Source of the DNA: Eubacteriales bacterium
GTDB taxonomy: Bacteria > Bacillota > Clostridia > Oscillospirales > CAG-272
Direction: 5' to 3'
Length of the DNA stretch: 41,291 nucleotides
NCBI GenBank assembly: GCA_045580585.1
Contig: JAZNOD010000053.1
Location: 1 to 41,291, forward strand
The translations under genes were made by a program, and so were the position numbers. Below are positions 2,909 to 40,993 of the stretch, piece after piece. The stretch's first letter is position 1. The number at the start of each line of letters is the position of its first letter. The notes below the pieces were generated by a model that searched no databases, was not told where the DNA came from, and saw only the letters and a program-made list of their open reading frames with translations.

Positions 2909-5158
2909 TTATAGTTTTATTCTTCCAAGCCGCAGGGCATTTCCTACTACAAAAAGTGAGCTAAGGCTCATAGCAAGACCGCCAAGCATTGGGGTAAGGG
3001 TGATGCCGAGAGGATAAAGGACACCTGCGGCAACAGGAATGGCAAGAATATTGTATATAAATGCCCAAAATAGATTTTGTCTGATATTGCGTATGGTTTT
3101 TTTACCAAGTATAATAGCACGGCAAACGTCCTCTGTATCACTGCGCATAAGCACTATGTCAGCGGAATCAATCGCTATATCGCTACCGTTTCCGATAGCA
3201 ACGCCTATATCCGCCTCGGTAAGTGCGGGGGCATCGTTAATACCGTCGCCTATCATCATAACAGTCTCCCCGTCACGCTTATAGCGCGATACGACATCTG
3301 CTTTTTCGGTTGGAAGCACGTCGGAGATGACCTCATCAATGCCTGCCGCTTTTGCTATTGCATTAGCCGCGGCAGAGTTGTCACCAGTCAAAAGAACTGT
3401 TTTTACCCCCATATCGCGCAAACGCGCTACGGTTTGCGGCGCGTTATCCTTTATCGTATCCGCAACCGCGGCTATTCCAACGATAGCACCGTCAACAGAG
3501 ATACAAATTACCGTTTTTCCCATTCCCTGAAGCGAGAAAATCATTTCACTTACGGCAGATATATCTATATTTTCGCTCGACATAAGCTTCGGGTTACCAG
3601 CCAGCAAGTATTTTTCATCTTCGGTCACGGCACTAACACCAAGCCCTGTGAGAACACGCATATTGTGTAATGATACATCCGCGCGAATGCCGTTCGTGTC
3701 TCCCCATTCGACAATGGCACGCGCTATCGGGTGGTCAGAAAGCCGTTCTACACTATAAAGCATAGTAGCAAGCTCGTTTTTGCTGACATTTCCAAGTGGA
3801 ACAAGGTCTGTAAGTGACGGTTTTCCCTCTGTGATAGTTCCTGTCTTATCAAACACGGCAATCGTTGTGCGGTGGGTTATCTCAAGCGCCTCGCCGCTTC
3901 TGATAAGCACGCCGTGTTGTGCCCCAAGTCCCGTTGCTACCATTATGGCAGTGGGTGTCGCAAGCCCCATGGCGCACGGACAAGCGATAACAAGGACAGA
4001 GGTGAATATTTTGATAGCAAACGAAACGTCACCGTTAATAATAAGCCACACAAGTCCCGCAAGAGTTGAAATAGCAATAACTACGGGAACAAACACACCC
4101 GCAACACGGTCTGCGGTCTTTGAGATCGGAGCCTTCTTGCCTTGCGCATCCTCGACGAATTTAACTATCTTCGCAAGTGTTGTATCGCTTCCCGTATGAG
4201 TTACGCAAACGTATATAACTCCGTCAGAAAGCACACTTCCGCCTATCACACGCTCGCCTGCCGTTTTTTCTACAGGAAGGCTCTCGCCCGTGATCATAGC
4301 TTCATTGATGCTGCCCGCACCTTTTGTTATCTCTCCGTCAAGCGGAATATGCTCCCCCGCCCTAACAATAAAAATGTCACCAACGCGCACCTCACTAATG
4401 GGGAGCGTTTTTTCGGTATCACCCACTACTACGTTTGCGGTGTCAGGGGAAAGACTCATCAGCTTTGTAATAGCAGATTTCGTTTTTTCGCCGCTACGCG
4501 CCTCAAGATATTTTCCGACAGAAACAAGCGTTATAACGGTTGCCGCCGCCTCAAAATACAGTTGATGCACGAGGTGGGGATGGTCCGCAATAAGAAACGT
4601 CACAACAAGGCTATACGAAAACGATGCCGCAGAGCTGATCGCTACGAGCGTATTCATATTAGGACTTCCGTGCAGGAGCGAACCAATACCGCCAATAAAA
4701 TAATCCTTTCCTATAACGAGTACGGGAATAGCGAGAATGAGTTGTAAAAGCGCAAAATTTTGGGGATGTGTTTCCGGGGCGAAGATGCTCGGAAGCGGAA
4801 AATTCGAAAACATCATATGCCCCATCGAAACGCACATGAGCAAAGACGCAAAGATTGCAGATGTTATAAGACCTATTCTCTTTTGTCTGAGCTTTTTTCC
4901 ACTATCGTCATTTTCGACCGGTTTGCTTTGCTCCTTTTTTTCTTCAAGGTGGAGCTTGGCTGAAAAACCGGCCTTTCCGACCTTATTTATTATCATTTCT
5001 TGAGTGGTCTGCGACTCGTCATAAACTATAGTGAGCCGCGCAAGCGTAAGATTGACATCACTACGCTCAACTCCGGGTAGCTTGCGTGTTACTCGCTCCA
5101 CAGCCGCAGAGCAAGCCGCGCAATGCATACCGCCTATATCGTATACTTCTTCTCTCAT
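2909..5158 (-). CDS. copA: Copper-translocating P1B-type ATPase
   Basis: N-terminal GMHCAAC HMA domain, TGES, CPC, DKTGT, HP, GDGIND, YN and MSLSS (Cu+ P1B-1 signature). Start placed at ATG 5158, after GAAGG and downstream of the promoter. Confidence 0.95.
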   Translation of the reverse strand: MREEVYDIGGMHCAACSAAVERVTRKLPGVERSDVNLTLARLTIVYDESQTTQEMIINKVGKAGFSAKLHLEEKKEQSKPVENDDSGKKLRQKRIGLITSAIFASLLMCVSMGHMMFSNFPLPSIFAPETHPQNFALLQLILAIPVLVIGKDYFIGGIGSLLHGSPNMNTLVAISSAASFSYSLVVTFLIADHPHLVHQLYFEAAATVITLVSVGKYLEARSGEKTKSAITKLMSLSPDTANVVVGDTEKTLPISEVRVGDIFIVRAGEHIPLDGEITKGAGSINEAMITGESLPVEKTAGERVIGGSVLSDGVIYVCVTHTGSDTTLAKIVKFVEDAQGKKAPISKTADRVAGVFVPVVIAISTLAGLVWLIINGDVSFAIKIFTSVLVIACPCAMGLATPTAIMVATGLGAQHGVLIRSGEALEITHRTTIAVFDKTGTITEGKPSLTDLVPLGNVSKNELATMLYSVERLSDHPIARAIVEWGDTNGIRADVSLHNMRVLTGLGVSAVTEDEKYLLAGNPKLMSSENIDISAVSEMIFSLQGMGKTVICISVDGAIVGIAAVADTIKDNAPQTVARLRDMGVKTVLLTGDNSAAANAIAKAAGIDEVISDVLPTEKADVVSRYKRDGETVMMIGDGINDAPALTEADIGVAIGNGSDIAIDSADIVLMRSDTEDVCRAIILGKKTIRNIRQNLFWAFIYNILAIPVAAGVLYPLGITLTPMLGGLAMSLSSLFVVGNALRLGRIKL

Positions 5159-5180
5159 AACTTTACCTTCTTCAATGGAG

Positions 5181-5194
5181 TTAGTCAAGACTAA
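5181..5194. promoter_or_regulatory. Palindromic putative repressor operator at the copA promoter
   Basis: TTAGTC-AA-GACTAA, a perfect 6-2-6 inverted repeat immediately downstream of the -10 box, over the expected transcription start. Confidence 0.6.
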
Positions 5195-5223: not shown

Positions 5224-7602
5224 TCAATTTTTATGGTAAACCTCTGTGGCAAATTTGACGATTGCCATAGCATCAGGGGAGTATTTATCTGCTCCGATGC
5301 GTTTCGCATACTCCTCTGTCAACACCGCGCCGCCAACAACCACCTTGACCTCAGGCAAAGCCGCACGCAGTGCTTTTATACTTCTTTCCATAGCGGGAAC
5401 GGTGGTTGTCATCAGCGCAGAAAGTCCAACAATGGCCGCACCCGTTTCTTTTGCGGCGGCAACGATTGCATCGGCAGGAACGTCTCTGCCAAGGTCGACA
5501 ACCTCAAAGCCATAGCTTCGAAGCATTACGCAAACGATGTTTTTGCCTATATCGTGGACGTCGCCCTCTACGGTAGCCATAATGACTTTCCCCGCGTTTA
5601 CACTCTCTCCGCCTTGGGCGAGAATTTGCTCGGAAACAATTCCGAGGGCGGCAACAGCCGCGTCGGCGCAAGACAAAAGTCCGGGGAGGAATATTCTTCC
5701 CGCTTCAAACTCCCGTCCCGCCTCCTCAAGCGCGGGAACTATTTTTGTATCTATTACGGCTTTGGGTGAGATATTATTGCATTCCTCTATCGCAAGCGCG
5801 ACGGCACGGCTCTTCATACCTCCGTATATCGCACCGGTAAGGTCATCGCCCCGTGCCTTAACGACCGTAGCGGCGTTAAGGTGTGCTCCAAGTCTGTCAA
5901 GCGCACCGCCATCGTTGACGCTCTCCCCTCTCGCGACACTCATCATAGATGCGGAATTGGGGTTAAGAATCGCGGCAGAAAGCCCGGCGGCAATAGCGGC
6001 GGTAAGAAAATCGGTATTTACCTTATCTCTGTCGGGCAGCCCAAAGGAAATATTCGACACGCCAAGAGAGGTAGCAACACCAAGCTCCTCTTTTATAATT
6101 TTGACTGCGCCAAGTGTTTTTTGGGCGGCAAGAGGATCGGCTCCGAGTGTAAGTGTCAGAGGATCTATAAGTATATCCTCCTTGGGGATACCGTATTCTG
6201 CCGCTTTTTTGACAATGCGTTTTGCTATCTCAAATCTTCCGATAGCGCTATCGGGGATACCGCTTTCATCAAGCGTGAGCGCAACTATCATTCCGCCGTA
6301 TTTGGCGGCAAGAGGCAAGATTGCGGACATAGATGCCTCACTTCCGTTAACGGAATTTATTAGCGCCTTTCCGTGATATCTGCGAAGCGCCGCTTCCATA
6401 GCTGTGGGAAGCGCGGTGTCGATCTGCAACGGAAGGTCGCATACCGCTTGAATGCGCTCAACGGTTTCGGTGAGCATAGCGCATTCGTCTATCTCGGGCA
6501 ATCCAACGTTTACGTCAAGCACATCCGCACCTGCCGCCGCCTGCGTATGAGCCTCATTCACTGCGTAATCAACGTCGCCGCGTCGGAGCGCATCCTTGAA
6601 TTTCGGTTTACCCGTGGGATTTATTCTTTCACCGATTATTGTAAGTCTATCTTCGCCAAGATCACAAACACGAGTGGCTGAAGTTATTATTGAGCGTTTT
6701 ACAACCTCACGCCGCGCCACAGAAAGTCCGGATACTTTTTCGGCAAGGCGAGCAATATATTCAGGAGTAGTTCCGCAACAGCCCCCGAGGAGCGATGCTC
6801 CTGCCTTTGCCATCTCAATCATCGCATCTGCAAATTCATCGGCTGAAACGTCATATACGGTCTTTCCATCGTCATCTGTGCGAGGAAGTCCCGCATTGGG
6901 GTTTACCGCGATTGGCAACGATGTCACCGAGGCAATATTGGGAAGTATTTTTAACATTTCGCGAGGGCCGAGCGAGCAGTTCATACCTACGGCATCAGCG
7001 CCAAGCCCCGACAAAACCGTCGAAACCACAATTGCGTCAGAACCGGTAAAAAGTCTGCCATCCGCGCCGTAAACATTTGTTACGACAACAGGAAGATCGC
7101 AGTTCTCCTTTACAGCAAGAAGCGCAGCGCGCGTTTCTGCAATATCTCCAAAGGTCTCAAGAAGAACGAGATCTGCCCCGTCCTTGCCCGCATTTACGGT
7201 TCGCGCAAACGTGGAAACGGCATCCTCAAAATCTATCCTGTCCGCTCCGTCTCCGACAAGCTTGCCGAGAGGTCCTATATCAAGTGCGACAAACACCGAT
7301 TTACTCGCTGTATCTGCCGCCTCGCGCGCGCACGAAACAGCCGCACCAACGATCTGCTCGACGCTGTATTTTCCGCCATCGGGGAAACGAAGCGCGTTTG
7401 CGCCAAAGCTATTGGTTTTTATTATATCAGCGCCTGCTGATATGTACTCCTTATGCAACGCGATAATATCGTCAGCACGGTCAACACACCACACCTCGGG
7501 TTTTTCGCCGGCTGCAAGTCCGCGGGATTGAAGCATTGTGCCTGCCGCACCATCGAATATCAATATACGCGTGCCTAATAATTGTTTAAAATTTGATTTC
7601 AT
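5224..7602 (-). CDS. metH: Cobalamin-dependent methionine synthase (homocysteine, pterin-binding and B12-binding domains; no AdoMet reactivation domain)
   Basis: FDGAAGTML, GMNCS and GGCCGT Zn ligands, IIGERINPTGK, B12 motif DVHDIGKNIV, SALMTTT, GGAV. The protein ends right after the B12 domain at 792 aa. Confidence 0.92.
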   Translation of the reverse strand: MKSNFKQLLGTRILIFDGAAGTMLQSRGLAAGEKPEVWCVDRADDIIALHKEYISAGADIIKTNSFGANALRFPDGGKYSVEQIVGAAVSCAREAADTASKSVFVALDIGPLGKLVGDGADRIDFEDAVSTFARTVNAGKDGADLVLLETFGDIAETRAALLAVKENCDLPVVVTNVYGADGRLFTGSDAIVVSTVLSGLGADAVGMNCSLGPREMLKILPNIASVTSLPIAVNPNAGLPRTDDDGKTVYDVSADEFADAMIEMAKAGASLLGGCCGTTPEYIARLAEKVSGLSVARREVVKRSIITSATRVCDLGEDRLTIIGERINPTGKPKFKDALRRGDVDYAVNEAHTQAAAGADVLDVNVGLPEIDECAMLTETVERIQAVCDLPLQIDTALPTAMEAALRRYHGKALINSVNGSEASMSAILPLAAKYGGMIVALTLDESGIPDSAIGRFEIAKRIVKKAAEYGIPKEDILIDPLTLTLGADPLAAQKTLGAVKIIKEELGVATSLGVSNISFGLPDRDKVNTDFLTAAIAAGLSAAILNPNSASMMSVARGESVNDGGALDRLGAHLNAATVVKARGDDLTGAIYGGMKSRAVALAIEECNNISPKAVIDTKIVPALEEAGREFEAGRIFLPGLLSCADAAVAALGIVSEQILAQGGESVNAGKVIMATVEGDVHDIGKNIVCVMLRSYGFEVVDLGRDVPADAIVAAAKETGAAIVGLSALMTTTVPAMERSIKALRAALPEVKVVVGGAVLTEEYAKRIGADKYSPDAMAIVKFATEVYHKN

Positions 7603-23028: not shown

Positions 23029-23334
23029 TTACATTTTAAAGAAGCCGTCATTGTCTCCCGCTCGCTTTTTTCCCTCGGAAATCGCGCAAAGCTCCCCCTC
23101 GGGCACTCTTACAAGCACAGCATCTTCACCGATGCATTCGATCCTACACCACGGGATAACGTATATGGAATCTTTGCCAAAGCTGAAAAGTCCGCGCTCC
23201 TTCCCAACAAGTAAGGCGCATATCTTCCCGTCGCAAGCATCAAATTCAATATCGCACACGCTGCCAAGCACAGTGCCTCCGCAAAGATTTATTACGTCCT
23301 TTTCCCTAAGGCACGCCGTGTTCATCCTCTTCAC
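23029..23334 (-). CDS. YlmC/YmxH-family sporulation protein (PRC barrel)
   Basis: LREKDVINL..G..LG.V.DIEFD..DGKI.AL.V and IPW..IE.IGEDAVLV. GTG start at 23334 follows GGAGGTGA; alternative ATG at 23325. Confidence 0.88.
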   Translation of the reverse strand: MKRMNTACLREKDVINLCGGTVLGSVCDIEFDACDGKICALLVGKERGLFSFGKDSIYVIPWCRIECIGEDAVLVRVPEGELCAISEGKKRAGDNDGFFKM

Positions 23335-23352: not shown

Positions 23353-23382
23353 ATTATATGGCGGTGATACGGATATTAGGAT
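23353..23382 (-). promoter_or_regulatory. Possible sporulation sigma-E-type promoter for the ylmC-like gene
   Basis: Minus-strand CATATAAT (23353-23360) resembles the sigE -10 element, with an ATA-containing element upstream; the -35 match is weak. Confidence 0.4.
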
Positions 23383-26057
23383 CGATCCTTGATAAAGCCC
23401 GAGCTTATCGCTCCGTTTATCAGCTTTTGGACAAATAGCAGGACTGCAGTAGTAAGGATCACACTCACAGGCACGCAAAGCATAACGAGCTTGTGCGCCG
23501 AAGCCAAGCCAAAAAACATCGACAGGGGTGCCGCTATCGCGGATGGAATTGCGAAATAAGCAATAGTATAAGGGAGAATGCACACAAGTGCGGTTACAAC
23601 GGTATACGCTGCAAACGGAACACCAAAAATCTTGGCGTGAGATTTATAAAGAGAAACACCAAGAACAGAGAGCTGGACAAAGCAAACGGTCGGTAAAGCA
23701 TAAGAAGCGTAGGATTGCGCACACAAGACTCCATTTGCGGCAAAAAGCATACCTATACCACTCGCCGCCGCACCGACAAAAATACCCGTGCAAACCGAGA
23801 GCAAACGTGATATCCTATCACTATTTTCATTCGTTTTAGGCGAGAAAAAATTCGGTGTCTGCGCATTTGTTGATTTGGCAAGAACACACACTGCGGCGAT
23901 ATCGCCAAACAGTCCTGTCAGCAAGATCAACGGGACACGAGGAACCGCTATCGGCGCCCCAGAGACTACGGGCATCAGGGCAAACACTGCCCTGAACGCG
24001 GCGCAAGTGATAAAATATTCTCCGCAAGCTTTTAGCCTTGCTTTGGCATTTCTTGCGGCATTTACAATGGCAAAAAACATTCCAAAGCCGCTTTTTTTAT
24101 CATTGCGGTCTGCGGCTCTTATGGCGGCAGACGCGGAAAGCCGTGCTGAGTCAGGAGACTCGCCATCGATAGAGACTGCAGGAGTATTCGGCACAACGTC
24201 GCGCAGATCAAAGGAATCGAGCACGATTGCCGAAAGCTTTGCACCTTTTTCGGCAAGTATACGGGATATCTCCGCTGTGCCTTTTTTGCCAAATCCGACA
24301 AAAACCGAGCATGAAGCAACAAGCTGCTCCATATCCGCGCCATCGGGATAATAGCTCGCTATAGCAATACCGCCGTCGGAAAGCGAAGAATCTGATATTC
24401 CGCATGATTGGGCTGCAAAAACGCTTTCCTCGTTTTCCTCCGTCATAATGAAGACGGGGCGTATCCCTATACTTCTGAGCGATGTAACAGATGCTTTATT
24501 GTGCTCGGGAACAGCAATTCCTGTGGCAATGACGCCCTCAAGTACCATTCCCTCGGATGAGGATACTGTTGATGTGATAACGTAAGGGGACAAACCAAGA
24601 CTGCGATACTCATTGAACGCCGCCACCGCCTTCAACGCTGTGGGCTGATCCATCGGCTTGATATCTCCCTTTGATGAACGGTATTTACGGCAATTGCGTA
24701 TCAGTGCCGCGTTCTGCGCACAAGAAATTATTTCTTTGCTGACGGGCGCAGTCTTTTCATCGATAACTATAGCGGAAAAAGCACCTACTGAAGGAAAATC
24801 CAGACGAGGCGTAGAGCTTTTTCCCTCGCTGATATTCCATCTTCTGTTTATCCCCATGCTTTTTACATAAGCTGAAAAAGCATCTCCATCCGCAATTGGT
24901 GAATTTGCTCTTAAAAGTTCAGCGGCGGCAATCAATTTATCAAGCTTCTCGGCAAGCGGCTTCAACGAACCCGATGTCAAAGAACCTCTTTTGTCAGCGC
25001 CATTCCAAAAGATGCGGCGAATATATCTATCTGTATCGAGAACTGCAGATTCACATAGTATAAGTAACGTATCAGTATCTGCGAGCGCATCGGATTTTGA
25101 GGCGATAGCAATACGCGCCCCATCCTCTATCTCGGACAGGCTGCCCAAAACTATGCTTTCTGCAGCAGAAGCGGAGATCTCACTGAATGATGTAAGCGAT
25201 AGCGCGACAGCAAGAAAAAACACACTGACTATGCCAAGTCCGTCCAGCGGCTGACAAACTGTGCCGATCATGGTAACCGGTAATACCGCTATAAGCATCG
25301 CGGTAGCAAAGGTGCGCCCACTTTTCGAAAAAGTAATAGCCGACGGCGGCATAGGCTCGGCCGACGTAAGTGATATTTCAGAATCGACCATGGCAACACG
25401 GGTATCCTTGCCAATAGCAACTACTAAAGCCTTGCATTTTCCCGAGACAACGGCAGAGCCTGCATATATCATATTATCATAGCTTTCGCGTTCATCAGCT
25501 TCGCTATATACGGCGTTGGCGTTTTTCTCTGCCACTCGTGCACGTCTTTTTGCCGTAGTCACATCGGTAAAATACTCCACGACCTTAAGGCGGGATGAAC
25601 GAATGAGTCGGCAGTCCGCGGGAACAACGTCGCCACGCAAAAGAATGATAACATCGCCAACAGCAATATCACGGCAATCAGCATCCTTAACGTTGCCCTC
25701 TGATAACAAATTTACCGTTGGAAGCATTTTCTCTGCAAGATGAAATAGCTTTAGGCGAGATGAGAATTTTATGCGCCCCGCAATGATACATGCCGCAAAA
25801 AGCAATCCAAGCGCTACCGCGGACTCGCACAATTCCCCCACGAGCATAGAGACAACAGCGGTGATAAAAAATATCATCACCGCCGCATCGGTCATCGTTG
25901 ACATAACGCATTCGCGAACATCCGCGCGCGGTAAAAGAAAGACTGACTCTCTGCGCTTGCGCGGCGGTTGTTTTTTCTCTGCGGTGCGTCCCAGCGAAAT
26001 ATCTGTATTCAGTTTTCGTGCCGCCTCCTCGGCGGTAAAACGCTGCCAAGACTCCAT
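23376..26057 (-). CDS. Degenerate P2-type (Ca2+-pump-like) ATPase homologue, predicted catalytically inactive
   Basis: Scaffold retained (W..FT.EEA..KL.TD..LG, GDVIILLRGDVVPADCRL, NMIYAGS.VVSG...ALVVAIG.DT, multiple hydrophobic helices), but no TGES, PEGL, DKTGT, DPPR, TGD or GDGxND. Confidence 0.8.
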   Translation of the reverse strand: MESWQRFTAEEAARKLNTDISLGRTAEKKQPPRKRRESVFLLPRADVRECVMSTMTDAAVMIFFITAVVSMLVGELCESAVALGLLFAACIIAGRIKFSSRLKLFHLAEKMLPTVNLLSEGNVKDADCRDIAVGDVIILLRGDVVPADCRLIRSSRLKVVEYFTDVTTAKRRARVAEKNANAVYSEADERESYDNMIYAGSAVVSGKCKALVVAIGKDTRVAMVDSEISLTSAEPMPPSAITFSKSGRTFATAMLIAVLPVTMIGTVCQPLDGLGIVSVFFLAVALSLTSFSEISASAAESIVLGSLSEIEDGARIAIASKSDALADTDTLLILCESAVLDTDRYIRRIFWNGADKRGSLTSGSLKPLAEKLDKLIAAAELLRANSPIADGDAFSAYVKSMGINRRWNISEGKSSTPRLDFPSVGAFSAIVIDEKTAPVSKEIISCAQNAALIRNCRKYRSSKGDIKPMDQPTALKAVAAFNEYRSLGLSPYVITSTVSSSEGMVLEGVIATGIAVPEHNKASVTSLRSIGIRPVFIMTEENEESVFAAQSCGISDSSLSDGGIAIASYYPDGADMEQLVASCSVFVGFGKKGTAEISRILAEKGAKLSAIVLDSFDLRDVVPNTPAVSIDGESPDSARLSASAAIRAADRNDKKSGFGMFFAIVNAARNAKARLKACGEYFITCAAFRAVFALMPVVSGAPIAVPRVPLILLTGLFGDIAAVCVLAKSTNAQTPNFFSPKTNENSDRISRLLSVCTGIFVGAAASGIGMLFAANGVLCAQSYASYALPTVCFVQLSVLGVSLYKSHAKIFGVPFAAYTVVTALVCILPYTIAYFAIPSAIAAPLSMFFGLASAHKLVMLCVPVSVILTTAVLLFVQKLINGAISSGFIKDRS

Positions 26058-26073
26058 TTTGATTCCTTAAAAT

Positions 26074-28428: not shown

Positions 28429-29148
28429 TCATAGACCTATATGGATAAAATCAACCGGCGAAAACTTACAAAAGAAGTTAAACAAATGTGAATCTCTCAC
28501 CATAAGAACAAGACTGTCGGTCGTCTGACCTGCAATTCTATATTCGATAAGCATACTAAGAACAAGACAAATTATCCATATGTAGATAAAACCGCTTGCC
28601 GCGCCAAAAACAGCTCCGAGGAATGAGTTGAGAGTCTTGACGACGGGAAGCTTTGCAAGCAGGTCAACGACCTTGCCAACTATATAAAGAGCTATCATCG
28701 AAACGAAAAATACAACAACAAATCCCAGAACGGTAGAAAGCGTATCTGCAATAGGCTTTGCGATAAATTCAGCCATCTCGCGAAGAGTATCCTGCGTTGC
28801 ATTAGCAAGCTCACCGTATTTGTACTGCAGACTCTCCGCAGTGACGCCAAAGCGCGACAAAAGCTCGGTAAAGCCTGCGTTTCCTTCAAATGCCGCAGAA
28901 ATATTGTATGAACCGTTTGTAAGACCAATTACCGGCTCAAGCGCTCCGTAGACGGTATTGGTAACGGTCTTGAGAACGAATATCTTATTAAAAAGCGCGC
29001 CCAATACGCTCCCGAACATTAAAGACAGTATAACGGATGCCGCGGCTCTCGCGAATCCCCAGACTGCTTTAACAAAACCGCGTTTTGTATCAAGAAAAAC
29101 TATCAGAGCAAAAAAAACAACCAAAATAATGTCAAAAATCCAATTCAT
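28429..29148 (-). CDS. CvpA (colicin V production)-family membrane protein
   Basis: MNWIFDII...KRGFVK N-terminus and KLPVVKTLNSFLGAVFGAA.G motif. Start ATG 29148 after GGAGAGG. Confidence 0.75.
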   Translation of the reverse strand: MNWIFDIILVVFFALIVFLDTKRGFVKAVWGFARAAASVILSLMFGSVLGALFNKIFVLKTVTNTVYGALEPVIGLTNGSYNISAAFEGNAGFTELLSRFGVTAESLQYKYGELANATQDTLREMAEFIAKPIADTLSTVLGFVVVFFVSMIALYIVGKVVDLLAKLPVVKTLNSFLGAVFGAASGFIYIWIICLVLSMLIEYRIAGQTTDSLVLMVRDSHLFNFFCKFSPVDFIHIGL

Positions 29149-29162
29149 AGCAAACCTCTCCT

Positions 29163-30398
29163 TTATTCTATCTCTATAATTTTGGCACTTGACGCACCGC
29201 AATAGTAAAGTCTGTCAGGAGCATAGGCGATGATCTCGTCGCCTGACAAAGCTCCTTTTATTTCAGTAAAATTATATTTGTTTTCACCTAAAGTATATAT
29301 ACCCGTTTCCGTGAGAACATAACCGTTGCCACCGTAAAGAGTTGCTGATATAACAGTGCCTTCGGTTTTGCTCTCCGCGCGCTTTCCGCTTGAATCGATC
29401 ACGAGCGCGGTGTTTTCTTTTTTCATAGCATCGCCTTTTATAATCGCAAGAACCGCGCCTTGGGATATTTCAAGCTTTGCAAGCTCCCCTTGCGGATAGC
29501 TATGCTCTGCGGCCTTTGTTGCGTTTTGGTCAAAAAACACAACACGGTCCTCACAAACAAGCATCAAACCGTTGTCAGTAAACACTGAACGCAGCGGAAG
29601 AGCTCCGGCATACTGCACTGTGGAGATCACATCTGTCTCTCCGATTGCCGAGATCGTTATCTCGGTAAGGAAGCCTCCCGAAGAATCTACCCCCAGCGTT
29701 GTGACGGCAACCCGTCCGTCATCTGAAATGTCGACTGACACAACAGGTGCATTTTTAAGATAACGGTTTATCATTTTAAAAGACGAATCATAAAGAGCCA
29801 CCGCACCGATATATTCATCTGTACGAGTTATGATCGCGTAATATCCATCATCCGAAACACAAATTCCCTTTATCGGGTATTGAAGCGTTTCCGAATACAC
29901 CTTTGAGAAGGTATTGTAGACGGAGTATTCGGTGCCGTTTTCCTCGTAAGCGATAACGTATTTATCGGAAACCGCAAGGCGCGCAGAGACATAGCCGTGA
30001 CGTTCCGCACAAGTCTTTCGCCCCGTGGCGGAAAATATCTCCACCTCCGAGTCGGAGCAAACAACGATGCCCCCGCCAAACAGTGAAAATACAGCCTCAT
30101 CATCGGGATTATAAAAGATCGATGACGTATAATCGGAATTTTCATCCAATGAGACGGCAAAATTTCTGATTATATAATCAAATTTCTCGTATGTTATATT
30201 ACCGACGTTTGAGATCGCGGAATAAATTACGTAGAAAAGAAACACAGCCAAAAGCGCAAACTCCGCAACACGGTAAGCGGCGGAAACGGCGTCGTAAAAT
30301 TTATTATATTCCCCCTCCTCGCCAAAAATGTTGCGTATGGCCTCTTTCTTTTCAGCTTCGGAGACGGTCTTTTTCTTTTTCCAACCGATAAGTGCCAT
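29163..30398 (-). CDS. Membrane-anchored beta-propeller-like protein (DUF5711-like)
   Basis: Basic N-terminus, one TM helix, then repeated beta-rich segments (VSDDGYYAII, ISDDGRVAVT); adjacent to the CvpA-like gene. Confidence 0.6.
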   Translation of the reverse strand: MALIGWKKKKTVSEAEKKEAIRNIFGEEGEYNKFYDAVSAAYRVAEFALLAVFLFYVIYSAISNVGNITYEKFDYIIRNFAVSLDENSDYTSSIFYNPDDEAVFSLFGGGIVVCSDSEVEIFSATGRKTCAERHGYVSARLAVSDKYVIAYEENGTEYSVYNTFSKVYSETLQYPIKGICVSDDGYYAIITRTDEYIGAVALYDSSFKMINRYLKNAPVVSVDISDDGRVAVTTLGVDSSGGFLTEITISAIGETDVISTVQYAGALPLRSVFTDNGLMLVCEDRVVFFDQNATKAAEHSYPQGELAKLEISQGAVLAIIKGDAMKKENTALVIDSSGKRAESKTEGTVISATLYGGNGYVLTETGIYTLGENKYNFTEIKGALSGDEIIAYAPDRLYYCGASSAKIIEIE

Positions 30399-40210: not shown

Positions 40211-40993
40211 ATGTCCCGTTCTTACGATAAAAGTGTGATACGCGCTTTTATTCTTCTTGCCATTGCAACCCTTTGCGTGATTCTTTGCACATTTGTGTTC
40301 GCACCGCTTGAAATCTCAACTGTGACAAATATTTTATATAAGGATTCGCCGTTGCCCGCGCTTTTCTATTATTTGAGAAAAATACTTGAGACGATATATT
40401 TGTTTTTACTTTTTTCTCTCGTTTCCTTTTCTGAATATTTTTGGCACAACAACAAGCCATGCCGCAATGCTTTTCTCGCCCTTGCGGGAGGTGTTGCTTG
40501 CTTTAGATGGATACTTAATTTTATTGCATCTGCCCTCTTTTCGGGAGTCGTCAATTTCCTAAAGGAGCTTGGCGTTACCATTGCATACGCACTGCTTGAT
40601 ATTGCACTTATTTGTGTTGTCTGTTTCGTTGCAGCCGTATTGTGCAGAAAGCATTATGAGCGTGCGGAAAAACTCAAACGAGCTAAACGCCGTCTTTCGG
40701 GCATCGAATATGACGAGCGCGCAGAGGTCTACCCCTTTAACAGCTTTTTATCCTCGACTAATCCCGTGCTTTTCCCATTGCTCATCGGAAGCGCGATTTA
40801 CACAGCCTTCCTTGTTATTTCAAGAATATACTACGATTTTTCTTTCGGCGCACCCGATGGTATAGCAGAAGTCTTCTCCATCATCTTTGGATATACGGGT
40901 GATATTCTGACCGGCGCGCTTTGCTACGTACTTTGTTATTTTACCGTGATATTTTTATTTTCCGAAAATGATAGGTCAATGGATAATGAATAA
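40211..40993 (+). CDS. Hypothetical multi-pass membrane protein
   Basis: 260 aa, about 6 hydrophobic segments, AGGA RBS, co-directional with ruvB; no family recognised. Confidence 0.75.
   Translation: MSRSYDKSVIRAFILLAIATLCVILCTFVFAPLEISTVTNILYKDSPLPALFYYLRKILETIYLFLLFSLVSFSEYFWHNNKPCRNAFLALAGGVACFRWILNFIASALFSGVVNFLKELGVTIAYALLDIALICVVCFVAAVLCRKHYERAEKLKRAKRRLSGIEYDERAEVYPFNSFLSSTNPVLFPLLIGSAIYTAFLVISRIYYDFSFGAPDGIAEVFSIIFGYTGDILTGALCYVLCYFTVIFLFSENDRSMDNE

Follow-up and report, generated by a model that had tools for sequence, protein, structure and literature searches.

A motif-less P-type ATPase homologue under purifying selection behind a ClpE-like gene in uncultured Clostridia

P-type ATPases are defined by their aspartyl-phosphate cycle, and a full-length homologue from which the motifs of that cycle have gone raises the question of whether its gene is decaying, encodes an enzyme in disguise or has been put to another use. 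This question is posed by a gene on the minus strand of contig JAZNOD010000053.1 (NCBI GenBank assembly GCA_045580585.1) from Eubacteriales bacterium, placed by GTDB in Clostridia, Oscillospirales, CAG-272; the contig was analyzed over all of its 41,291 nucleotides (nt) and is referred to here as the window. The gene encodes a motif-less homologue of P2-type ATPases of 893 amino acids (aa), termed the pseudo-pump below, and it lies directly behind a ClpE-like gene of the Hsp100/Clp AAA+ class (Table 1). Overall, the best explanation, which is held with slightly better than even confidence, is that the pseudo-pump is a catalytically dead membrane scaffold that probably works with ClpE and ClpP.

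The open reading frame (ORF) of the pseudo-pump starts with ATG and contains zero stops or frameshifts over its 893 aa. A Pfam scan of the protein gave PF00122 (E1-E2 ATPase) alone, at residues 113-270 with 56.8 bits and above the cut-off, and did not find PF00702 (hydrolase), PF00689 (Cation_ATPase_C), PF00690 (Cation_ATPase_N) or PF13246 (Cation_ATPase). The P-type models of NCBIfam all scored far under their cut-offs, the top one being IIA2_Ca with 64.4 bits against a required 798.3, and the curated cut-offs of the Ca2+-ATPase equivalogs (TIGR01522, TIGR01116 and others) were not reached. When searched as a single sequence, the protein matched PDB chains over residues 50-305 only, with Listeria LMCA1 at the top (58 bits); a profile of 76 family members matched LMCA1 at full length (positions 7-891, 351 bits). 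Furthermore, profile-profile alignment (hhalign) of 76 family members with 32 intact P2 pumps gave a probability of 100 % and an E-value of 5.2e-89 over 855 aligned columns. These data bear out the original prediction of an intact 893-aa ORF colinear with P2A Ca2+-ATPases, to which the minus strand can now be added, and on such alignments the homology to P-type ATPases along the whole length of the protein can be regarded as secure.

The layout of the pseudo-pump comprises an N-terminal segment, an actuator (A) domain, remnants of the P and N domains and, as judged from hydropathy, hydrophobic segments where M1-M10 are expected, and the fold is presumably the P-type architecture of A, P and N domains with ten transmembrane helices. 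In the A domain, residues G134, D135, G142, D143, P146, D148, R150, K178, N195, G206, G216 and T219 are kept. In public records such proteins go by the name "hypothetical protein" or else "cation-transporting P-type ATPase [Clostridia bacterium]".

The motif register was established by MAFFT alignment with intact pumps, by profile-profile alignment and by alignment of the family profile with LMCA1. All six motifs that had been predicted from the sequence to be replaced, namely TGES, PEGL, DKTGT, DPPR, TGD and GDGxND, were found replaced and in register by both the MAFFT and the profile alignments, and the LCESA stretch, which had been placed at about 25044-25058, maps to exactly these coordinates. 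The profile alignment puts Leu334, and not an Asp, at the phosphorylation site. In addition, the Lys column of the KGAPE motif holds Cys446 in the pseudo-pump and is hydrophobic across the family. The CopA-type pump of the same window, which had been put forward as an internal control, serves well as one, with TGES, DKTGT and GDGIND all present, and three further pumps in the genome all carry DKTG. Among 130 full-length members of the family, aligned by MAFFT with seven intact pumps, the six commonest residues in the column of the phosphorylated Asp are Leu (56), Ile (15), Met (12), Phe (12), Val (11) and Cys (5), and the Lys column of DKTGT is mostly Gly. It is therefore very likely that the pseudo-pump is unable to hydrolyze ATP via an aspartyl-phosphate, and hence does not pump; it would be a pseudoenzyme and not a pseudogene.

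A protein of this kind might still act as an ATPase or phosphatase with non-canonical residues, and one candidate for such a role is Asp341, seven residues past the old phosphorylation position; 79 % of the family keep this Asp, and Gly is the next residue in 64 %. The remnants of the P and N domains are also under constraint. However, four HAD-type motifs have been lost jointly (motif I in DKTGT, the Thr of TGD, the Lys and the acidic pair of GDGxND), the nucleotide-binding Lys has been lost as well and PF00702 is not matched, and a cryptic enzyme is accordingly considered very improbable.

The loss of all catalytic motifs would also be expected of a decaying relic that has yet to gain a stop codon, and the pseudo-pump is the fastest-evolving gene of its neighborhood and is patchily present even inside its genus. 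Selection on the gene was measured by the Nei-Gojobori method. The closest orthologue for which DNA was obtained encodes a protein of 66 % identity to the window protein, with dS to the window gene saturated (1.8-2.3), and the three non-saturated pairs among loci L007, L008 and L018 were used; these gave dN/dS values of 0.16, 0.18 and 0.18 at dS of 0.56, 0.76 and 0.87, respectively. The same pairs gave 0.016-0.049 for ClpE, 0-0.06 for YlmC and 0-0.11 for rpsB. When the pseudo-pump was divided into eight domains, omega was 0.06-0.37 and thus below 0.4 in every one of them, including the N domain (0.12-0.15), the P domain (0.12-0.20) and the M5-M10 block (0.21-0.25). The frame is open in 22 of 22 complete orthologous loci, which encode 801-1183 aa from stop to stop and are 23-66 % identical to the window protein, and hundreds of diverged clusters keep the length and architecture of the protein. 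No close relative with intact motifs turned up, and the intact pumps nearest to the pseudo-pump belong to a distinct, canonical paralogue. These data indicate that the pseudo-pump gene is fast-evolving yet under purifying selection in all domains. The low omega together with the open frames rules out simple pseudogenization, and the idea of a relic is already contradicted and extremely improbable. The original prediction of selection for a non-pumping role in place of decay is thereby supported by the dN/dS values that it had proposed as a check, by the open frames, by the absence of intact close relatives and by the single clade described below. The pseudo-pump would then be a repurposed, non-pumping membrane protein, for which we infer a more specific role (scaffold, regulator, sensor or carrier) from the evidence that follows.

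When 1.84 billion cluster representatives were searched exhaustively with phmmer, 6536 matches were obtained at E <= 1e-3 and 825 at E <= 1e-10. Among the best 150 of these 825 matches, 146 are without DKTG, and in one of the four with DKTG the motif is misplaced; of the 149 new representatives in the best matches, 123 are 780-1000 aa long and without DKTG. The nearest ESM Atlas cluster (score 0.98) contains 1543 members from Bacillota under the title "hypothetical protein", with PF00122 in 100 % and PF00702 not listed. Family-profile scores do not split dead from live pumps, as intact ones reach 340-420 bits, and proteins were classified by their motifs; likewise, a locus search with a generic A-domain pattern gave 80 loci, most of them ordinary pumps, and the motif-less ones alone were used. 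The record titles of the family members point mostly to gut and rumen sources, and the clade carries no name in any library searched.

A FastTree phylogeny of 34 motif-less and 35 intact pumps, with CopA as outgroup, placed 34 of 34 motif-less proteins in one clade (SH-like support 100). An IQ-TREE analysis (LG+G4, short search) of a set without the five longest branches (ps_P0188, ps_P0147, ps_P0137, ps_P0164 and ps_P0150) recovered the main family, with 27 rows, as one clade (SH-aLRT 98) and the proteins of loci L124 and L127 as its sister (100). The sampled motif-less proteins thus form one clade, a large and fast-evolving family in uncultured Clostridia; this grouping may reflect long-branch attraction, as the branches are long and the amino-acid composition is heterogeneous. 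The nearest rows to the window protein are P0003 (66 % identity) and P0006 (48 %), and the next members are 23-29 % identical. Conservation across the family is seen in the A-domain core, in some structural Gly and Cys positions and at three sites of M5/M6. A single origin of the main family is also favored by its shared derived characters, which are an Arg in M5, a Gly-x3-Asp arrangement in M6 and a Gly-Gly insertion before M5 (residues 656-657); in the window protein R689, G715 and D719 are present, and S656-G657 stand where the family has Gly in 85 % and 95 %.

Three basal members (P0015, P0197 and P0171) carry the derived characters of M5, M6 and the Gly-Gly insertion and have lost the phosphorylated Asp, and their A-domain loop is free of the loop insertion and reads "LTG" or "LTS". 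In P0015 and P0197, which are metagenomic, the Lys and Gly of DKTG are kept, Pro or Met stands at the Asp position and an Asp is found two residues on. These basal proteins suggest that the phosphorylated Asp was lost ahead of the other motifs, with stepwise decay after one origin. The L124 and L127 proteins have Asn at the phosphorylated-Asp position, keep "PES" in M4, read QGLDDA at the hinge and are without the Arg/Asp pair or the insertion; they may represent a separate, younger degeneration. These two loci (L124:1468-4134 and L127) come from two genomes that belong to a different family within the order, and their neighbors are a lipocalin-like gene, TrmK and a Na/Ala symporter.

Some family members are longer, at 1076-1256 aa, and P0170, P0238 and P0247 carry 161-321 aa of low-complexity sequence at the C-terminus, a cytoplasmic tail in which E, K, P, S and D abound; the window protein has no such tail. 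Pfam found no domain in the tails of these three and nothing beyond the C-terminal pump block in L026:7923-11306, L029:7989-11294 and L037:7959-11507. An informative domain fused to the long members was consequently rejected, with low-complexity tails being all that was seen.

The position of the former ion site bears on what the membrane domain can do. The M5 position that binds Ca2+ in intact pumps holds Arg in 104 of 130 family members, the Asn position of M6 holds Gly in 95 of 130 (Gly715 in the pseudo-pump), the Pro of M4 is mostly gone across the family and the Glu of M4 is retained in only 54 of 130. According to PMC5387105, SERCA Glu771 corresponds to Arg655 of the plant proton pump AHA2, and SERCA Asp800 to AHA2 Asp684; Arg655 is termed a "built-in counter-ion". 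By analogy, the former ion site of the pseudo-pump is probably self-neutralized, with Arg689, in place of the M5 Glu, pairing with the retained M6 Asp719, and we hold this with moderate confidence. A base in M5 and an acid in M6 occur together in 106 of the 130 members, both are missing in 15, the acid occurs alone in eight and the base alone in one. Because relatives are not independent, contrasts were taken on the family tree; across eight changes of the base, the acid changed, on average, the same way in 5.4, the opposite way in 0.2 and not at all in 2.4 (median sign-test p 0.06). Two points weigh against the ion pair: this phylogeny-aware test of joint change is suggestive only, and the SERCA numbering over M5 and M6 is taken from PMC5387105 and from alignment to intact P2 pumps of bacteria.

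An ATP-independent role on the old transport pathway, as a passive channel or uniporter for ions or as a sensor of cations, would find some encouragement in the retained ten-helix membrane block with its omega of 0.21-0.25, in the M6 acid present in 114 of 130 members and in Glu293 of M4, which the window protein keeps. The family-wide M5 Arg, M6 Gly and losses in M4 speak against it, as does the tendency of the Arg and the Asp to vanish jointly, as an internal ion pair would and unlike an open cation site. A cation site permanently neutralized by its own Arg would argue against a channel, a carrier or a cation sensor, and a role of this type is regarded as quite unlikely. With the ion site neutralized in this way, the membrane domain would be a closed, cation-free scaffold that is neither channel nor carrier.

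The genes around the pseudo-pump offer a possible partner. On the minus strand the order is truA, DUF5711, a CvpA-like gene, the gene of a 771-aa Clp/Hsp100 AAA+ protein, the pseudo-pump and a YlmC/YmxH PRC-barrel gene, followed by rpsB-tsf-pyrH-frr-uppS-cdsA-dxr-rseP-ispG-polC. PMC13125188 gives as ClpE features a pair of AAA modules, an N-domain with Cys residues and, in AAA2, an xGF loop. The neighboring AAA+ gene has all three and is, by these sequence marks, ClpE-like; its product falls below the ClpA and ClpB cut-offs of NCBIfam, the library returned no ClpE-specific model, and a charged, heptad-looking stretch, a candidate for a ClpC-like coiled-coil M-domain, lies between its AAA modules. 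Each of the 11 full ClpE orthologues from pump-bearing loci retains the Cys cluster (C4, C7, C30 and C33) unchanged and has an xGF tripeptide (LGF, VGF, AGF or PGF), the mark of the ClpP-docking loop. ClpP is encoded elsewhere in the genome. A scan of the 16-nt spacer between the ClpE-like gene and the pseudo-pump (26058..26073) for a terminator-like site saw none.

Twenty-six loci with motif-less pumps were examined, of which L015 (where the contig starts inside the pump), L124 and L127 are exceptions; in the remaining main-family loci with upstream sequence, the immediate upstream neighbor is a ClpE-like gene in the same orientation (23 of 23). Fifteen of these 23 had been retrieved by pump similarity alone, with no reference to ClpE, and the gap from the clpE stop to the pump start is <= 40 nt in 15 of 18 loci measured. 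Among ten loci with long flanks, DUF5711 is found upstream of clpE in nine and CvpA in nine, and the YlmC-rpsB-tsf order is found downstream in closer relatives only (L018 and L019), being absent from the other eight. When both proteins are compared over the same genome pairs, identity amounts to 57-98 % for ClpE and 23-66 % for the pseudo-pump.

Several observations accompany these neighbors. The DUF5711 and CvpA-like genes roughly match the pump in evolutionary rate (22-35 % identity, against 57-72 % for ClpE) and stand upstream of clpE with or without a pump, and the truA-DUF5711-CvpA-clpE block was not seen upstream of ClpE-like genes in six genomes of other families. The YlmC/YmxH gene probably starts at GTG 23334 after GGAGGTG, since the mechanical 184-aa ORF to 23583, which overlaps the last 208 nt of the pump, is too long; this start leaves about 40 nt past the pump stop, where no terminator-like site was seen. 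PADLOC gave no match for the pseudo-pump, the CvpA-like protein or the DUF5711 protein and only generic AAA matches for the ClpE-like protein, and a defense-system reading was dropped for this reason.

Table 1. Features of the window discussed in the text, all on the minus strand, with residue numbers of the encoded protein
Feature	Coordinates	Strand	Remarks
Motif-less P2-type ATPase homologue (pseudo-pump)	23376..26057	-	893 aa + stop; assigned from ORF, family and PDB matches, profile-profile alignment
Actuator (A) domain core, residues 111-236	25350..25727	-	most conserved part; omega 0.06-0.17
TGES-equivalent loop EYFTDVTTAKRRARVA, residues 161-176	25530..25577	-	TGES gone, 5-residue insertion present
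M4 PEGL equivalent SEIS, residues 292-295	25173..25184	-	Pro gone, Glu293 retained
Phosphorylation-site (DKTGT) equivalent LCESA, residues 334-338	25044..25058	-	Leu334 at the phosphorylated-Asp position
DPPR equivalent IAVP, residues 514-517	24507..24518	-	
TGD equivalent MTE, residues 538-540	24438..24446	-	
Hinge GDGxND equivalent VLDSFD, residues 612-617	24207..24224	-	
C-terminal membrane block M5-M10, residues 673-893	23379..24041	-	hydrophobic at 682-726, 755-803, 810-850, 858-889
Arg689 in M5, at the Ca2+-binding Glu position	23991..23993	-	Glu in 7/7 intact pumps
Asp719 in M6, at the conserved M6 Asp position	23901..23903	-	Asp in 102 and Glu in 12 of 130 members
ClpE-like Hsp100/Clp AAA+ protein, 771 aa	26074..28389	-	C4 Cys cluster (C4, C7, C30, C33); Walker A at 181 and 516; LGF at 640 in AAA2 loop
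Spacer from ClpE-like stop to pump ATG, 16 nt	26058..26073	-	AAGGA ribosome-binding-like site
CvpA-like membrane protein (PF02674)	28429..29202	-	conserved block
DUF5711 protein (PF18975)	29163..30398	-	conserved block
YlmC/YmxH-family PRC-barrel gene	23029..23334	-	101 aa; TIGR02888 49.7 bits against a cut-off of 44.2
CopA-type P1B pump, internal control	2909..5188	-	TGES300, CPC403, DKTGT447, TGD601, GDGIND647 intact

From gene order and spacing, the pseudo-pump may act with the ClpE-like unfoldase, whose gene precedes its own by 16 nt and presumably shares its transcription unit, and, via ClpE, with ClpP; this link is tentative, and we give it somewhat less than even weight. In such a partnership the pseudo-pump might bring ClpE-ClpP to the membrane as its anchor or adaptor there; alternatively, ClpE might engage it as a client or regulator residing in the membrane.

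Several lines of evidence weigh against the link to ClpE. Of the 23 other genomes in the genus, nine yielded a full-length motif-less pump when searched with the window protein. DKTG is present in each of the 14 P-type matches from four genomes of this genus with a completeness of 95-98 %; in three of these four, which have a ClpE orthologue (69-70 % identity), and in a fourth genome, 79 % complete, ClpE is followed by an unrelated ORF of about 375 aa. The truA-DUF5711-CvpA upstream block is intact in two of two pump-free genomes of the genus that were examined. A sample at the level of the family contained a motif-less pump above 550 bits in five of 12 genomes. ClpE-like genes with a Cys N-domain are widespread across the class, and in 40 genomes from about 36 other families a pump-like gene within 3.4 kb downstream of the ClpE-like gene, on either strand, was found in none (0/40), with a pipeline that recovered seven of seven positive controls; a class-wide pairing of ClpE with a pump was accordingly rejected. 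The slow evolution of ClpE beside the fast evolution of the pump would be unusual for tight, co-evolving partners, the sister lineage of L124 and L127 does not adjoin ClpE, and PMC13125188 describes a ClpE that acts autonomously and a clpE that is typically monocistronic. These data show that ClpE does not need the pump, and because ClpE occurs elsewhere without it, any functional tie would make the pump accessory to ClpE and not the reverse. An accessory function would also be consistent with the disappearance of the pseudo-pump from many close relatives that retain ClpE and the rest of the block.

The ORF of about 375 aa found behind ClpE in loci L168-L171 (genomes G002, G020, G016 and G012) is 65-84 % identical among the four, and it is absent from the window and from every pump-bearing locus examined. 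This pattern indicates that the local gene order differs and that the pump was not simply deleted.

The same observations feed a different account, in which the pseudo-pump is an autonomous, non-enzymatic membrane scaffold (structural, sensing, or binding lipids or proteins) and its place behind clpE is a historical accident of the site of the ancestral pump gene. The pump has been lost with no change to ClpE or the upstream block, ClpE occurs class-wide without it, the two proteins evolve at discordant rates, ClpE is autonomous in vitro according to PMC13125188, and the L124/L127 sister lineage is located elsewhere, all of which fit an accident of position. However, adjacency to ClpE holds in 23 of 23 main-family loci even at 23 % pump identity, the gaps are mostly <= 40 nt, the upstream neighbor is constant where the downstream neighbors vary, and a gene order that outlasts such divergence is usually functional. 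An independent scaffold is for these reasons judged rather unlikely, and the dead scaffold that probably works with ClpE and ClpP is retained as the better account.

AAA+ unfoldases typically grasp disordered tails like those of the long family members, and these tails are a lead toward a handle for ClpE and not evidence of one. A bolder form of the ClpE partnership, which we consider unlikely as stated, would make the pseudo-pump a membrane docking or gating subunit for ClpE-ClpP, in which an ATP-free fold is driven in trans by the AAA+ motor and, by presenting or releasing them, makes membrane proteins or its own disordered tail in the cytoplasm available to be extracted and degraded. If this were true, the P5A transmembrane-helix dislocases would have, in this pair, a bacterial counterpart made of two components, and the pseudo-pump would be the first known adaptor or anchor for ClpE.

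Elsewhere in the window, two further ORFs were observed. A methionine-synthase-like ORF of 792 aa (5224..7602, minus strand) has homocysteine S-methyltransferase, pterin-binding and B12-binding domains, and no Pfam match at E <= 1e-5 was found for a C-terminal reactivation domain in it. A 260-aa ORF on the plus strand (40211..40993), downstream of ruvA-ruvB, had no Pfam match at E <= 1e-5.

Literature searches, with most subscription journals outside their reach, brought up no account of motif-less P-type ATPases as a family in bacteria, or of an operon pairing ClpE with a pump, and a term search in a 2023 review of P-type ATPases (PMC10654040) gave no mention of a motif-less bacterial family. 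The per-domain selection, the stepwise motif loss, the patchiness within one genus and the persistence of the upstream block and ClpE without the pump are new points, and the M5-Arg/M6-Asp counter-ion pair proposed for the pseudo-pump family is a new point of the present analysis. A populous bacterial clade has discarded the whole aspartyl-phosphate cycle and keeps the four-domain, ten-helix architecture under selection, which points to a second, non-enzymatic use of the fold. The family would be a natural "frozen" pump with an ion site apparently shut by a built-in Arg-Asp pair, and as such it bears on how counter-ion pairs stabilize cation-free states. The constant position behind clpE is a concrete lead to a membrane partner of ClpE, for which PMC13125188 gives no known anchor and suggests one candidate adaptor. 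Furthermore, the label "cation-transporting P-type ATPase" makes reconstructions of metabolism in gut Clostridia include a calcium pump that, in all likelihood, cannot work.

Compared with the P2A Ca2+-ATPases (LMCA1, PDB 6zhf and 9euq; SPCA1; SERCA), the pseudo-pump shares full-length colinearity and domain order (351 bits to LMCA1 and 295 bits to SPCA1), the conserved A-domain core GDxxxLxxGDxVPADxRL and the M6 Asp; it differs in the loss of all catalytic motifs and of the KGAPE Lys, in the M5 Arg and M6 Gly, and in forming a separate clade. With AHA2, a P3A plant plasma-membrane H+-ATPase, it shares a basic residue at the SERCA Glu771 position and an acidic one at the SERCA Asp800 position (PMC5387105), although a pairing of the two in the pseudo-pump is read from sequence. 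AHA2 is active and its pair cycles with phosphorylation, whereas the pair of the pseudo-pump would be static, and the family is not phylogenetically P3A, its top PDB matches being P2A. The Lys693/Asp714 pair of ZntA fills the same counter-ion role as the AHA2 pair.

As for ClpE-ClpP of Firmicutes, the neighbor of the pseudo-pump has the two AAA modules, the Cys N-domain and the AAA2 xGF loop described in PMC13125188, and ClpP is encoded in the genome; however, the published clpE is typically monocistronic and its product adaptor-free in vitro, whereas in this clade a dead pump follows within tens of bases. The closest published precedent found for the pseudo-pump is the P4-ATPase-like module of alveolate guanylate cyclases (P4GC, for example in Cryptosporidium; PMC13466520), in which DKTGT and LDGET are degenerate in some lineages and the module is nevertheless retained, suggesting a non-catalytic role. 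The P4GC modules are eukaryotic, of P4 type, fused to a cyclase and degenerate in some lineages, whereas the pseudo-pump is bacterial, of P2 type, free-standing and degenerate across its whole clade.

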